The translations under genes were made by a program, and so were the position numbers. From Escherichia coli (GTDB lineage: Bacteria; Pseudomonadota; Gammaproteobacteria; Enterobacterales; Enterobacteriaceae), in assembly GCF_003334335.1 (NCBI RefSeq), contig NZ_QOWQ01000005.1: a stretch of DNA of 64,000 nucleotides; one strand, written 5' to 3'. Below are positions 26,009 to 56,622 of this stretch, in pieces (within the stretch, counting starts at the first letter, position 1; the number at the start of each line of letters is the position of its first letter). Below the pieces are notes generated by a model, which worked only from the letters and a program-made list of their open reading frames with translations, ran no database searches and was not told the DNA's origin.

Positions 26009-27412
26009 GTGTCACTTTCGCTTTGGCAGCAGTGTCTTGCCCGATTGCAGGATGAGTTACCAGCCACAGAATTCAGTATGTGGATACGCCCATTGCAGGC
26101 GGAACTGAGCGATAACACGCTGGCCCTGTACGCGCCAAACCGTTTTGTCCTCGATTGGGTACGGGACAAGTACCTTAATAATATCAATGGACTGCTAACC
26201 AGTTTCTGCGGAGCGGATGCCCCACAGCTGCGTTTTGAAGTCGGCACCAAACCGGTGACGCAAACGCCACAAGCGGCAGTGACGAGCAACGTCGCGGCCC
26301 CTGCACAGGTGGCGCAAACGCAGCCGCAACGTGCTGCGCCTTCTACGCGCTCAGGTTGGGATAACGTCCCGGCCCCGGCAGAACCGACCTATCGTTCTAA
26401 CGTAAACGTCAAACACACGTTTGATAACTTCGTTGAAGGTAAATCTAACCAACTGGCGCGCGCGGCGGCTCGCCAGGTGGCGGATAACCCTGGCGGTGCC
26501 TATAACCCGTTGTTCCTTTATGGCGGCACGGGTCTGGGTAAAACTCACCTGCTGCATGCGGTGGGTAACGGCATTATGGCGCGCAAGCCGAATGCCAAAG
26601 TGGTTTATATGCACTCCGAGCGCTTTGTTCAGGACATGGTTAAAGCCCTGCAAAACAACGCGATCGAAGAGTTTAAACGCTACTACCGTTCCGTAGATGC
26701 ACTGCTGATCGACGATATTCAGTTTTTTGCTAATAAAGAACGATCTCAGGAAGAGTTTTTCCACACCTTCAACGCCCTGCTGGAAGGTAATCAACAGATC
26801 ATTCTCACCTCGGATCGCTATCCGAAAGAGATCAACGGCGTTGAGGATCGTTTGAAATCCCGCTTCGGTTGGGGACTGACTGTGGCGATCGAACCGCCAG
26901 AGCTGGAAACCCGTGTGGCGATCCTGATGAAAAAGGCCGACGAAAACGACATTCGTTTGCCGGGCGAAGTGGCGTTCTTTATCGCCAAGCGTCTACGATC
27001 TAACGTACGTGAGCTGGAAGGGGCGCTGAACCGCGTCATTGCCAATGCCAACTTTACCGGACGGGCGATCACCATCGACTTCGTGCGTGAGGCGCTGCGC
27101 GACTTGCTGGCATTGCAGGAAAAACTGGTCACCATCGACAATATTCAGAAGACGGTGGCGGAGTACTACAAGATCAAAGTCGCGGATCTCCTTTCCAAGC
27201 GTCGATCCCGCTCGGTGGCGCGTCCGCGCCAGATGGCGATGGCGCTGGCGAAAGAGCTGACTAACCACAGTCTGCCGGAGATTGGCGATGCGTTTGGTGG
27301 CCGTGACCACACGACGGTGCTTCATGCCTGCCGTAAGATCGAGCAGTTGCGTGAAGAGAGCCACGATATCAAAGAAGATTTTTCAAATTTAATCAGAACA
27401 TTGTCATCGTAA
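26009..27412 (+). CDS. dnaA: Chromosomal replication initiator DnaA (467 aa, GTG start)
   Basis: Trimmed to GTG at 26009 giving [30 protein letters not shown]…; AAA+ Walker [11 protein letters not shown]; C-terminal DNA-binding domain. Confidence 0.96.
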
Positions 27413-32054: not shown

Positions 32055-32156
32055 GCCTGATGCGCTACGCTTATCAGGCCTACGAAAATCTTGCAATGTA
32101 TTGAATTTTCATGATTTTGTAGGCCGGATAAGGCGTTCACGCCGCATCCGGCAAGA
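32055..32156. repeat. BIME: two REP units in inverted orientation downstream of gyrB
   Basis: tgcctgatgcgctacgcttatcaggcctac (32055-32084) and gtaggccggataaggcgttcacgccgcatccggcaag (32119-32156). Confidence 0.8.
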
Positions 32157-41677: not shown

Positions 41678-42010
41678 TCAGTTATCAGGCATTCTGGCCG
41701 GTGGAATAACCGCATTGGTGGCTTGCGCGTTGGCTTCGCTTTTTTCAACGCGCGAGCGCACCGAGCTGTCTTTGCGGAACACATCCCACGGCAGTAAAAG
41801 CGTGTCCATCACAGCGGTAAACGGCATATCGAGAATCGCCAGCGACTTAGTGCCCCAGTTGGTTTCATCGTCGCCAATCATGGTTGCGCTGGCGCGGGTG
41901 CCGGGATACGTTCCTTCTTTCCCTCCGGTATGGGACATCACGCTGGAGCATCCTCCGAGTAATGTCATTCCGCTGCATATCATGAACGCTAACAACACAT
42001 TTCTTATCAT
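41678..42010 (-). CDS. yidQ: Putative lipoprotein YidQ (DUF1375, 110 aa)
   Basis: Trimmed to MIRNVLLAFMICSGMTLLGGCSS… (lipobox LLGGC). Confidence 0.8.
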   Translation of the reverse strand: MIRNVLLAFMICSGMTLLGGCSSVMSHTGGKEGTYPGTRASATMIGDDETNWGTKSLAILDMPFTAVMDTLLLPWDVFRKDSSVRSRVEKSEANAQATNAVIPPARMPDN

Positions 42011-42184
42011 AATAAATTCATCTGTTGATCGTGGGTGTTGGCCTGATGAGTTATAGCGATCCCTTGCTGAAAATAACATCATCATTACGTCGCACTGTGG
42101 CGGCTATCGCACTTTAACGTTTCGTGCTGCCCCCTCAGTCTATGCAATAGACCATAAACTGCAAAAAAAAGTCCGCTGATAAGG

Positions 42185-42215
42185 CTTGAAAAGTTCATTT
42201 CCAGACCCATTTTTA
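42185..42215 (+). promoter_or_regulatory. Sigma-32 heat-shock promoter of ibpA
   Basis: -35 cttgaaa and -10 cccattttta with about 14-nt spacer, close to the sigma-32 consensus (CTTGAAA / CCCCATNTA). Confidence 0.8.
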
Positions 42216-42315
42216 CATCGTAGCCGATGAGGACGCGCCTGATGGGTGTTCTGGCTACCTGACCTGTCCATTGTGGAAGGTCTTACATTCTCGCTGATTT
42301 CAGGAGCTATTGATT

Positions 42316-42729
42316 ATGCGTAACTTTGATTTATCCCCGCTTTACCGTTCTGCTATTGGATTTGACCGTTTGTTTAACCACTTAGAAAACAACCAGAGCC
42401 AGAGTAATGGCGGCTACCCTCCGTATAACGTTGAACTGGTAGACGAAAACCATTACCGCATTGCTATCGCTGTGGCTGGTTTTGCTGAGAGCGAACTGGA
42501 AATTACCGCCCAGGATAATCTGCTGGTGGTGAAAGGTGCTCACGCCGACGAACAAAAAGAGCGCACCTATCTGTACCAGGGCATCGCTGAACGCAACTTT
42601 GAACGCAAATTCCAGTTAGCTGAGAACATTCATGTTCGTGGTGCTAACCTGGTAAATGGTTTGCTGTATATCGATCTCGAACGCGTGATTCCGGAAGCGA
42701 AAAAACCGCGCCGTATCGAAATCAACTAA
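42316..42729 (+). CDS. ibpA: Small heat-shock protein IbpA (alpha-crystallin family, 137 aa)
   Basis: Trimmed to [20 protein letters not shown]…; alpha-crystallin domain. Confidence 0.95.
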
Positions 42730-42840
42730 TTCCCTAAGGCCGCCTGGCGCGGCCTGACATCTCCATGCTCGCCGTCAGGGAGCATATGCGAATCTTCGGA
42801 TTTGCAGGTACTTACTCGCTTCTTAGAAGGAGAAATGACT

Positions 42841-43269
42841 ATGCGTAACTTCGATTTATCCCCACTGATGCGTCAATGGATCGGTTTTGACAAACTGGCC
42901 AACGCACTGCAAAACGCCGGTGAAAGCCAGAGCTTCCCGCCGTACAACATTGAGAAAAGCGACGATAACCACTACCGCATTACCCTTGCGCTGGCAGGTT
43001 TCCGTCAGGAAGATTTAGAGATTCAACTGGAAGGTACGCGCCTGAGCGTAAAAGGCACGCCGGAGCAGCCAAAAGAAGAGAAAAAATGGCTGCATCAAGG
43101 GCTTATGAATCAGCCATTTAGCCTGAGCTTTACGCTGGCTGAAAATATGGAAGTCTCTGGCGCAACCTTCGTAAACGGTTTACTGCATATTGATTTAATT
43201 CGTAATGAGCCTGAACCCATCGCAGCGCAGCGTATCGCTATCAGCGAACGTCCCGCGTTAAATAGCTAA
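42841..43269 (+). CDS. ibpB: Small heat-shock protein IbpB (142 aa)
   Basis: Trimmed to [24 protein letters not shown]…; paralogue of ibpA immediately downstream. Confidence 0.95.
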
Positions 43270-43284
43270 CTAGCTATTCTCTTT

Positions 43285-43313
43285 GCCCCGCCATTCTGGT
43301 GGGGCTTTTTTTG
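43285..43313 (+). terminator. Rho-independent terminator after ibpB
   Basis: gccccgccattctggtggggc stem followed by T8. Confidence 0.8.
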
Positions 43314-43464
43314 TCTTACTTACTCAACAATGCGTTAAATTTCGACTGTTTAAGATATTTCGGCACGTTCTTTCCCGTGATAATGTGCGCTATAAGGCAA
43401 ATCTGCTTCACCGATTCAGCCATAATCCGTAGCAATTAAAATGTTATCTCAAGAGAAATGGACG

Positions 43465-45126
43465 ATGAGTGATATAGCATTAACGGTCAGTATTCTGGCT
43501 TTGGTGGCAGTCGTCGGTTTGTTTATCGGCAACGTCAAATTTCGCGGCATAGGATTAGGTATTGGCGGCGTGCTGTTTGGTGGGATCATCGTCGGCCATT
43601 TTGTTTCTCAGGCGGGGATGACATTAAGTAGCGATATGCTGCATGTTATTCAGGAATTTGGCCTGATCCTGTTCGTTTATACTATCGGGATTCAGGTAGG
43701 GCCGGGCTTCTTTGCCTCATTGCGCGTCTCCGGATTACGCCTCAACCTGTTTGCTGTTCTGATCGTCATCATCGGTGGTCTGGTTACCGCCATCCTGCAT
43801 AAACTGTTTGATATTCCACTGCCGGTAGTGCTGGGGATTTTCTCCGGTGCGGTTACCAATACGCCAGCGCTGGGGGCAGGGCAGCAGATTTTGCGCGACC
43901 TGGGTACACCAATGGAAATGGTCGATCAGATGGGGATGAGTTACGCGATGGCGTATCCATTCGGCATTTGCGGGATTTTGTTCACCATGTGGATGTTGCG
44001 GGTTATTTTCCGCGTCAATGTCGAGACAGAAGCTCAGCAGCACGAGTCTTCACGCACCAATGGCGGCGCGCTGATCAAGACTATCAATATTCGCGTTGAG
44101 AACCCTAACCTGCATGATTTAGCCATTAAAGATGTACCGATTCTCAACGGCGACAAAATTATCTGCTCGCGTCTGAAACGCGAAGAAACCCTAAAAGTTC
44201 CTTCGCCAGATACCATTATCCAACTGGGCGATTTGCTGCATCTGGTGGGTCAGCCAGCGGATTTACATAATGCGCAACTGGTGATTGGTCAGGAGGTCGA
44301 TACTTCGCTGTCCACGAAAGGCACTGATTTGCGCGTCGAGCGTGTGGTGGTCACCAATGAAAACGTGCTCGGAAAACGTATTCGCGACCTGCACTTTAAA
44401 GAACGCTATGACGTTGTTATCTCGCGCCTGAACCGTGCCGGGGTCGAACTGGTCGCCAGTGGCGATATCAGCCTGCAGTTCGGCGATATCCTCAATCTGG
44501 TGGGGCGTCCGTCCGCAATTGATGCCGTTGCCAATGTGCTGGGGAATGCGCAGCAAAAACTGCAACAGGTTCAGATGCTGCCAGTGTTTATTGGCATCGG
44601 GCTAGGCGTATTGTTAGGTTCTATTCCCGTCTTTGTGCCAGGATTCCCGGCCGCGTTGAAACTGGGGCTGGCGGGCGGACCGCTGATTATGGCGTTGATC
44701 CTCGGGCGTATCGGCAGTATCGGCAAGCTGTACTGGTTTATGCCGCCAAGCGCCAACCTCGCGCTGCGGGAGCTGGGGATCGTGCTGTTCCTCTCGGTCG
44801 TTGGTCTGAAATCTGGTGGGGATTTTGTGAATACCCTGGTCAATGGCGAAGGGCTAAGCTGGATTGGTTATGGTGCCCTGATCACCGCCGTTCCGCTGAT
44901 TACTGTTGGCATTCTGGCGCGGATGTTAGCCAAAATGAATTACCTGACCATGTGCGGGATGCTGGCAGGTTCCATGACCGATCCTCCGGCGCTGGCGTTT
45001 GCTAATAATCTTCATCCAACCAGCGGTGCGGCGGCGCTCTCTTACGCCACTGTCTATCCGTTGGTAATGTTCCTGCGCATTATCACCCCCCAATTACTGG
45101 CGGTGCTCTTCTGGAGTATCGGTTAA
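43465..45126 (+). CDS. yidE: Putative AAE-family transporter YidE with central TrkA-C (RCK_C) domains (553 aa)
   Basis: Trimmed to [16 protein letters not shown]…; two membrane halves separated by soluble RCK_C-like region. Confidence 0.85.
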
Positions 45127-56479: not shown

Positions 56480-56622
56480 TGCACTAAATACGTCAAAATT
56501 CGTGCCGAAATTGCGCGTTCTGCGCGGAACACGTATACTTTCAGTGTTGACATAATACAGTGTGCTTTGCGGTTACCAGCCGCAGGCGACTGACGAAACC
56601 TCGCTCCGGCGGGGTTTTTTGT
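56480..56622 (+). ncRNA. istR: IstR antitoxin sRNA (IstR-2 about 140 nt; IstR-1 about 75 nt from about 56546; shared terminator)
   Basis: Candidate promoters (TTGGAC-18-GATACT; tatact at 56534-56539), 21-nt stretch 56546-56566 nearly identical to 56288-56308 in the tisAB leader, terminator gaaacctcgctccggcggggtttttt; 5' ends approximate. Confidence 0.75.

Follow-up and report, generated by a model that had tools for sequence, protein, structure and literature searches.

The control region of the Escherichia coli ibpAB operon: a sigma-32-type promoter and a ROSE-like RNA thermometer in the ibpA leader

The ibpA locus and its upstream region

The whole stretch of E. coli DNA analyzed here, 64,000 nt in length and referred to as the window, carries the small heat-shock genes ibpA and ibpB in the following setting:

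yidR, upstream of the minus-strand gene yidQ in the order read on the plus strand
41678-42010, minus strand, yidQ, as placed in RefSeq
yidQ-ibpA intergenic region, 305 nt
42316-42729, plus strand, ibpA, encoding the 137-residue small heat-shock chaperone IbpA (an open reading frame whose DNA is 100% identical to RefSeq-annotated ibpA, WP_001243437.1)
42841-43269, ibpB, downstream of ibpA and upstream of yidE
43285-43305, intrinsic terminator between ibpB and yidE

A 1.6-kb stretch of this locus is 100% identical to many E. coli chromosomes in which RefSeq annotates yidQ, ROSE, ibpA, ibpB, and yidE. Of 5426 complete E. coli genomes, 5418 contain the 134 bp that comprise the promoter and the leader, 5385 of them with at least 99% identity, and the leader does not differ from the common E. 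coli allele (100% identity). The region controls the small heat-shock operon ibpAB of E. coli; its leader is the ROSE-like thermometer of that operon itself, base for base, already known and annotated in Rfam and RefSeq, and the promoter, too, is known.

An earlier note on this DNA, made from the letters alone, had assigned the promoter and leader to 42086-42315. That interval takes in most of the yidQ-ibpA intergenic region, but the RNA element extends beyond 42315 into the start codon and first codons, with the Rfam match described below ending at 42322. Its left edge, 42086, marks the end of a longer, mechanically called open reading frame and is no biological boundary, as RefSeq places the yidQ start at 42010 and not at 42085. 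Between 42086 and 42184 nothing was found except an A-tract just upstream of the -35 element. This run of eight A residues (CAAAAAAAAG; 42162-42169, plus strand) lies about 16-23 nt upstream of the -35, a position like that of an UP-element A-tract, and is not conserved in the other genera compared.

Nine nucleotides after the ibpA stop codon, the transcript contains a GC-rich hairpin, GGCCGC-CUGGC-GCGGCC (42738-42754, plus strand), which does not count as an intrinsic terminator in our scan because no U-tract lies behind it; it may serve in the stability or processing of the mRNA between the two genes. Elsewhere in the window, three further Rfam matches exceed their gathering scores, all unrelated to the leader: istR (56491-56620, plus strand, 150.1 bits), AsdA, the antisense RNA of dnaA mRNA (26519-26599, minus strand, 101.9 bits), and ES036/CssrF (32076-32118, minus strand, 44.8 bits).

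A sigma-32-type promoter and the putative transcription start

Promoters recognized by sigma-32 have the consensus CTTGAAA at -35 and CCCCATNT at -10, which is reportedly to be credited to Cowing 1985 and Nonaka 2006. The corresponding features upstream of ibpA are as follows:

42185-42191, plus strand, sigma-32-type -35 element CTTGAAA, by direct reading
42205-42215, plus strand, sigma-32-type -10 element ACCCATTTTTA, a 7/8 match to CCCCATNT
42220-42223, plus strand, putative transcription start, placed 5-8 nt past the -10 element or by the G71 numbering discussed below

The near-consensus sigma-32 promoter proposed in the earlier note is present as CTTGAAA and CCCATTTTTA (42206-42215), separated by 14 nt, and is the only such motif in the 64 kb; in an alternative reading, TTGAAA is followed after 13 nt by ACCCATTT, which matches CCCCATNT at 7 of 8 positions. 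The pattern CTTGAAA-N12-16-CCCAT occurs once on both strands of the window versus 0.07 occurrences expected from dinucleotide shuffles, and a looser promoter pattern likewise occurs once versus 0.11 expected. Of the orthologous ibpA loci listed from other species, 115 had sufficient sequence upstream, and in 98 of these CTTGAA is found 51-200 nt before the ATG, versus 2.6% of control windows; its median distance from the ATG in the orthologue loci listed, 133 nt, is close to the 131 nt observed in E. coli. The single occurrence against chance expectation and the positions in the orthologues together establish that the promoter-like motif is real, nonrandom, and positionally conserved. A housekeeping (sigma-70) promoter for ibpA was also considered and was dropped, as a scan of 41900-43500 returned no sigma-70-like site.

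Use of this promoter by sigma-32 is probable from the known consensus and from the literature, in which ibpAB is described as being under sigma-32 control (bioRxiv 10.1101/2020.04.20.050740; PMC10474464). The end of the -10 element lies 101 nt from the ATG, in line with the distance of about 100 nt given earlier, and the leader that would follow from the putative start is approximately 93-96 nt long, in keeping with the long 5' leader proposed in the earlier note. If the published residue G71 (PMC2896394) corresponds to the bulged G42293 described in the next section, then transcription would start at 42223, giving a 5' UTR of 93 nt.

Predicted fold of the leader

Folded as RNA at 37 °C, nucleotides 42220-42318 give an MFE structure that is identical to the centroid structure and consists of three hairpins (-34.1 kcal/mol, z = -2.76):

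42220-42258, plus strand, SL1, a stable 5' hairpin (MFE and centroid fold)
42261-42282, plus strand, SL2, a stable hairpin, GACCUGUCC...GGAAGGUC, with a bulged G at 42266 (MFE and centroid fold)
42290-42306, plus strand, SL3 core, the thermosensing hairpin CUC(G)CUG-AUUU-CAGGAG (MFE and centroid fold, Rfam structure)
42286-42312, plus strand, SL3 in its Rfam consensus form, which adds two weak lower pairs, 42286-42287 with 42311-42312

The two lower pairs of SL3 are absent from the MFE fold and are 56% paired in relatives (MAFFT alignment). The ribosome-binding site ggagct, named in the earlier note as the sequence that might be occluded, was located at 42303-42308, with the SD core AGGAG at 42302-42306 and the ATG at 42316. 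In the SL3 core, an anti-SD sequence, UCGCU (42291-42295), faces this SD core, leaving G42293 bulged.

The predicted stabilities of the three hairpins differ markedly. SL1 has a predicted ΔG of -21.0 kcal/mol at 30 °C and -16.6 kcal/mol at 42 °C, and SL2 one of -10.45 and -7.9 kcal/mol at the same temperatures, whereas the SL3 core reaches only -5.0 kcal/mol at 30 °C, -3.4 kcal/mol at 42 °C, and -2.3 kcal/mol at 50 °C. Taken in isolation, SL3 is therefore the labile element of the leader, far weaker than SL1 and SL2. Deletion of G42293 in silico converts SL3 into a perfect 6-bp helix that is more stable by approximately 3.8 kcal/mol (37 °C), and this stabilization fits the published loss of thermosensing upon deletion of guanine G71 (PMC2896394).

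Membership in the ROSE family

The Rfam family ROSE_2 (RF01832) matches 42250-42322 on the plus strand over its full length (model positions 1-73 of 73), scoring 100.4 bits where 65 is the gathering score (E = 4.5e-23), and the match, which was recovered in the whole-window scan as well, covers the same bases as the RefSeq ROSE feature (L001 1851-1923). It lies directly upstream of ibpA, a small heat-shock gene of the alpha-crystallin type, in the 5' UTR, and overlaps the start codon. ROSE-like elements are described as comprising between two and four hairpins, of which the 3'-proximal one contains the SD, and as pairing the SD imperfectly, with a bulged G, to U(U/C)GCU, the sequence that has been named their hallmark (PMC3669281). 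The ibpA leader forms three hairpins and has its SD in the last of them, SL3, and its UCGCU and AGGAG segments pair around a bulged G in just this way.

Rfam is of little help in classifying the distant leaders. When its gathering thresholds were applied to 19 orthologous loci, ROSE_2 was called in Escherichia albertii (L005), the nearest relative in this set, alone; among these loci, the leaders of Serratia, Pantoea, Budvicia, Aeromonas, Cellvibrio, and the alpha-proteobacteria carry the same U(U/C)GCU/bulged-G/SD hairpin and received no ROSE family call. Because E. albertii was the sole ROSE_2 call, Rfam could not be used to classify these leaders.

Conservation and covariation of the hairpins

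A DNA-pattern scan of species-representative genomes with the back-translated IbpA N-terminus retrieved at least 120 ibpA loci. Among the matches listed, the gamma-proteobacteria are represented by Enterobacterales, Aeromonas, Salinivibrio, Cellvibrio, and others, the beta-proteobacteria by Undibacterium, and the alpha-proteobacteria by Rhodobacterales and Rhizobiales; nearly all of the loci listed have a CTTGAA-type -35, one or two hairpins, and a U(U/C)GCU...AGGA hairpin adjoining the ATG.

Within the Enterobacterales, the three-hairpin structure imposed on a plain MAFFT alignment of 54 leaders is 85% paired, compared with 36-52% for slid controls, and RNAalifold applied to the same alignment independently yields SL3, bulged G included, as well as the inner stem of SL1. 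The SL1 inner stem is 91.7% paired, with compensatory changes in 6 of 9 pairs among the matches listed (5 pairs in the RNAalifold prediction). Compensatory changes within the order are clear in SL1 and in the base of SL2; the SL3 core is invariant there and, for lack of variation, uninformative. The SL1 outer stem is 47% paired in the MAFFT alignment, and both it and the SL3 lower pairs, being poorly aligned or not conserved, were left out of the covariance model described next.

A sequence-only MAFFT alignment of SL3 across 114 distinct leaders placed the SD one to two columns off the structural register and was set aside, and owing to this register error a covariance model comprising SL2, SL3, and the start codon was used for the distant leaders. 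Its matches in 100 sources were aligned to give an alignment, A3, with 132 distinct ibpA and ibpB leader rows. SL3 is 99.5% paired in the 132 distinct leaders of A3 (among the matches listed), an alignment that was fitted to the model structure and is biased toward it. Among the matches listed, the outer pair of SL3 is C-G in 96 rows, A-U in 22, G-C in 5, G-U in 2, and U-A in 1, and the inner pair is U-A in 47, G-C in 45, C-G in 18, G-U in 7, and U-G in 4; the four central pairs are fixed and contain the SD, and are thus uninformative as to pairing. SL2 shows compensatory changes in 8 of 8 pairs in A3 (matches listed), and the overall covariation score of 0.432 compares with values of at most 0.067 in controls and exceeds those of all 500 shuffles and all slid controls. 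The 91 distinct ibpA leaders among the matches listed, which span alpha-, beta-, and gamma-proteobacteria, show covariation in SL3 at the outer as well as the inner pair, whereas its bulged residue is G in 83 of 83 ibpA leaders.

The sequence of SL2 is conserved as well. Its CCUGUCC...GGAAGG form extends from Enterobacterales to Rhodobacterales (matches listed), and its bulged residue (42266 in E. coli) is G in 86 of 87 ibpA leaders, drawn from the 91 distinct leaders among the matches listed. In Cellvibrio-type leaders the SL2 pairs covary (CUUGAUC...GAUAAG) and the bulged G is kept. The 3' arm of SL2 is purine-rich and SD-like. Across the three proteobacterial classes among the matches listed, the SL2 sequence and its bulged G are as strongly conserved as the thermosensor.

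Two side observations were made on individual loci. The ibpA leader of Cedecea neteri NBRC 105707 (L041:3627-3703), the strain whose ibpA UTR was used experimentally (PMC10474464), has CATGAG in place of CAGGAG at the SD, which breaks one SL3 pair (C-U); the sibling Cedecea/Enterobacter leaders L007 and L098 carry CAGGAG. At two alpha-proteobacterial loci, FMN riboswitch matches are found a few kilobases from ibpA (L094:787-927 and L002:7237-7367; 113 and 111 bits), a proximity that is probably coincidental.

Temperature dependence in silico

The earlier note had proposed folding the leader at 30 versus 42 °C as a check on the thermometer. For the UTR up to the AUG, SL3 forms with a probability of 0.98 at 30 °C, and the probability that all five SD bases are free rises approximately 8-fold by 42 °C. 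With 3' ends at 42324 or 42330, the SL3 probability is 0.2-0.3 at 30 °C, and SD accessibility shows no rise on warming; the drop in SL3 is attributable to a rival pairing between CGC of the anti-SD arm and GCG of codon 2. With 3' ends at 42345, 42360, and 42390, SD opening again increases with temperature. In the whole-leader ensemble, SD opening thus increases with temperature for four of six choices of 3' end and not for the other two, in a nearest-neighbor model that leaves out the noncanonical pairs described for ROSE elements. A first series with 3' ends between 42322 and 42345 had given inconsistent SD accessibility, the cause of which the wider series traced to the choice of 3' end.

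The proposed check therefore leaves the idea standing, in that the ribosome-binding site is predicted to be structured at low temperature, but it is not decisive, as its outcome depends on the 3' end; for this reason the thermometer claim is not based on the folding series. An independent published calculation points in a similar direction and puts the predicted melting rate of the ibpA ribosome-binding site above the mean of random E. coli mRNAs, though not significantly so (PMC2896394).

Relation to known thermometers

The closest counterpart of the leader is the E. coli ibpA ROSE-like thermometer itself (RF01832; Waldminghaus et al. 2009, RNA Biol 6:455, as cited in PMC3669281), with which it is identical, no difference having been found. 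The Pseudomonas ibpA elements, termed short ROSE-like thermometers (Krajewski et al. 2013, PMC3669281), precede the orthologous gene and have the same anti-SD motif and the same mechanism. They consist of two hairpins in UTRs of 61-62 nt, compared with three hairpins in approximately 95 nt in E. coli, and their thermal induction is 4.3- and 6.4-fold versus 4-fold for the E. coli element (PMC3669281).

A second leader of the same type lies within the operon. The same CUC(G)CU/AGGAG hairpin is found directly before the ibpB ATG at 42841, and the ibpA-leader covariance model matches this leader at 42777-42849 on the plus strand (26.1 bits, E = 5.6e-4), as it does the corresponding spot downstream of ibpA in approximately 40 other species among the matches listed. 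The ibpB leader differs in that its upstream hairpin is of another kind, lacking the CCUGUCC/GGAAGG form of SL2, and in that the inner pair of its SD hairpin, CUC(G)CUU/AAGGAG, is U-A and not G-C; it has no Rfam ROSE match at E ≤ 1. According to the papers that cite it, a thermometer has been reported for ibpB (Gaubig et al. 2011, as cited in PMC3669281 and bioRxiv 10.1101/2020.04.20.050740), and ibpB is also repressed by IbpA (bioRxiv 10.1101/2020.04.20.050740). A sigma-54 promoter has been reported upstream of ibpB; inspection by eye revealed no convincing GG-N10-GC motif there.

ROSE1 (RF00435) of the Bradyrhizobium japonicum hspA operon, the founding ROSE element, is longer than the ibpA leader, with four hairpins in place of three, and the RF00435 (ROSE) model has no match to the leader or elsewhere in the window at E ≤ 1. 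ROSE1 is transcribed from a sigma-70-type promoter and is not known to depend on sigma-32. It likewise occupies the 5' UTR of a small heat-shock gene, and, like the ibpA leader, it masks the SD in the 3'-proximal hairpin through U(U/C)GCU and a bulged G, with more stable hairpins upstream (PMC3669281).

The thermometers of rpoH and the fourU type (agsA) are also cis-acting mRNA structures whose melting frees the translation initiation region, and rpoH, like ibpA, is repressed by IbpA (PMC10410725). Their architectures are unrelated to that of the ibpA leader: in rpoH, coding sequence takes part in the structure and it is the start codon that is masked, and in fourU elements four U residues pair with the SD. 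Both lack the U(U/C)GCU motif and the bulged G of the ibpA leader.

Mechanism and alternative explanations

The motifs, the fold, the family membership, and the covariation reported above were observed directly in the present analysis, and they fit the following account. Transcription would initiate from the sigma-32 promoter (-35 CTTGAAA, -10 ACCCATTT) at approximately 42220-42223, the inferred start, and the resulting leader of about 93-96 nt would fold into three hairpins, of which SL1 and SL2 would be thermostable and SL3 marginally stable. In SL3, the anti-SD U-C-G-C-U would pair with the SD AGGAG, with the bulged G42293 keeping the hairpin labile. At low temperature SL3 would cover the SD and little translation would occur; upon warming, gradual melting of SL3 would allow 30S binding and IbpA synthesis, so that control would be exerted at translation initiation. 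Superimposed on this switch is a feedback loop that has been shown in published work: IbpA oligomers bind the leader and repress translation, and titration of IbpA by protein aggregates lifts the repression.

Heat-dependent translation, the effect of the bulged G, and IbpA binding are taken from the literature. In a bgaB fusion driven by a temperature-neutral promoter, the E. coli ibpA thermometer allowed only low expression at 25 °C (14 Miller units), which rose 4-fold at 42 °C (PMC3669281), and deletion of guanine G71 abolished thermosensing (PMC2896394). The ibpA UTR has been described as three stem loops, SL1-3, and strengthening of SL3 blocks expression under all conditions (bioRxiv 10.1101/2020.04.20.050740). 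In the PURE system, IbpA represses translation from the ibpA 5' UTR, to which it binds (PMC10410725; PMC10474464); it represses ibpA-UTR reporters in vivo in a manner relieved by aggregates, and its conserved residue Arg93 is needed for RNA binding (both PMC10410725; PMC10474464; bioRxiv 10.1101/2020.04.20.050740). For structure probing and in vitro ribosome binding, the experiments covered here are those on the related Pseudomonas ibpA elements (PMC3669281). Together with the ROSE_2 match, the RefSeq ROSE feature, the location of the SD in a weak hairpin, and the covariation, the published heat-dependent translation bears out the suggestion of the earlier note that the leader harbors a thermometer hiding the ribosome-binding site. 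We consider the account as a whole (sigma-32 promoter, three-hairpin leader, SL3 thermometer, and IbpA feedback) to be almost certainly correct.

The alternative that deserves most attention is that the leader serves mainly as an IbpA operator, from which IbpA is released when aggregates titrate it, with direct temperature sensing by the RNA playing a minor part. The repression of UTR reporters by IbpA in vivo and in the PURE system speaks for such an operator, as does the finding that weakening and strengthening of SL1 or SL2 each abolish IbpA-mediated repression (bioRxiv 10.1101/2020.04.20.050740); the conservation of the SL2 sequence beyond the needs of pairing (matches listed), with its nearly universal bulged G, and the modest, context-dependent thermal response of the SD in silico (also PMC2896394) point the same way. 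However, the ibpA UTR confers temperature-dependent reporter expression, and Pseudomonas ROSE elements show temperature-dependent ribosome binding in vitro without IbpA (both PMC3669281), and the authors who described the self-repression call it a "safety catch" added to the thermometer and not a substitute for it (bioRxiv 10.1101/2020.04.20.050740). The operator is more a complement than a competitor of the thermometer, and we consider it unlikely that it is the main function of the leader.

Considerably less probable is the notion that the hairpins are chiefly mRNA stabilizers, i.e., that a 5'-terminal stem-loop protects against RNase E or 5'-end-dependent decay and has no specific role in translation. 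SL1 does coincide with the inferred 5' end or adjoin it, with a predicted ΔG of -16.6 kcal/mol even at 42 °C, and such a role has been discussed for hairpin I of ROSE elements (PMC3669281), but protection of the 5' end could account for SL1 at most; it leaves unexplained why, in three proteobacterial classes (matches listed), the SD pairs with a U(U/C)GCU motif around a bulged G, neither of which varies, and why expression is lost when SL3 is strengthened (bioRxiv 10.1101/2020.04.20.050740). That the promoter-like motif and the fold arose by chance in an intergenic region and are devoid of function has a probability close to nil. Consensus scans and MFE folds are weak evidence when taken alone, and a z-score of -2.76 is moderate; chance is nevertheless excluded by the Rfam E-value of 4.5e-23, the covariation, and the conservation. 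The promoter motif is unique in the window versus 0.07 expected, promoter and hairpins are positionally conserved in more than 100 species (matches listed) with compensatory changes, the leader is nearly invariant across 5418 E. coli genomes, and there is an extensive experimental literature on the ibpA leader (PMC3669281; PMC10410725; bioRxiv 10.1101/2020.04.20.050740; PMC10474464; PMC2896394).

Significance

As the leader is that of the textbook, experimentally characterized E. coli ibpA thermometer, it is not a new lead, and the result carries little weight as a discovery, the ibpA thermometer and one other being the best-studied elements of the ROSE type. It can serve as a positive control, in which a sigma-32 promoter was recognized and an RNA thermometer predicted from sequence alone. 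The comparative set, with at least 120 ibpA loci and 91 distinct leaders, is of minor value in its own right, in that the SD hairpin covaries cleanly across three proteobacterial classes.

The conservation of SL2, taken together with the loss of IbpA repression in both weakened and strengthened SL2 mutants, suggests a sequence-specific role for this hairpin. SL2 might be a recognition element on which, for example, IbpA oligomers dock, or it might act together with SL3 as its tertiary or standby-site partner, an idea that we put forward tentatively and regard as rather doubtful. If true, a specific role of SL2 would explain why weakening and strengthening of the hairpin both abolish IbpA-mediated repression.
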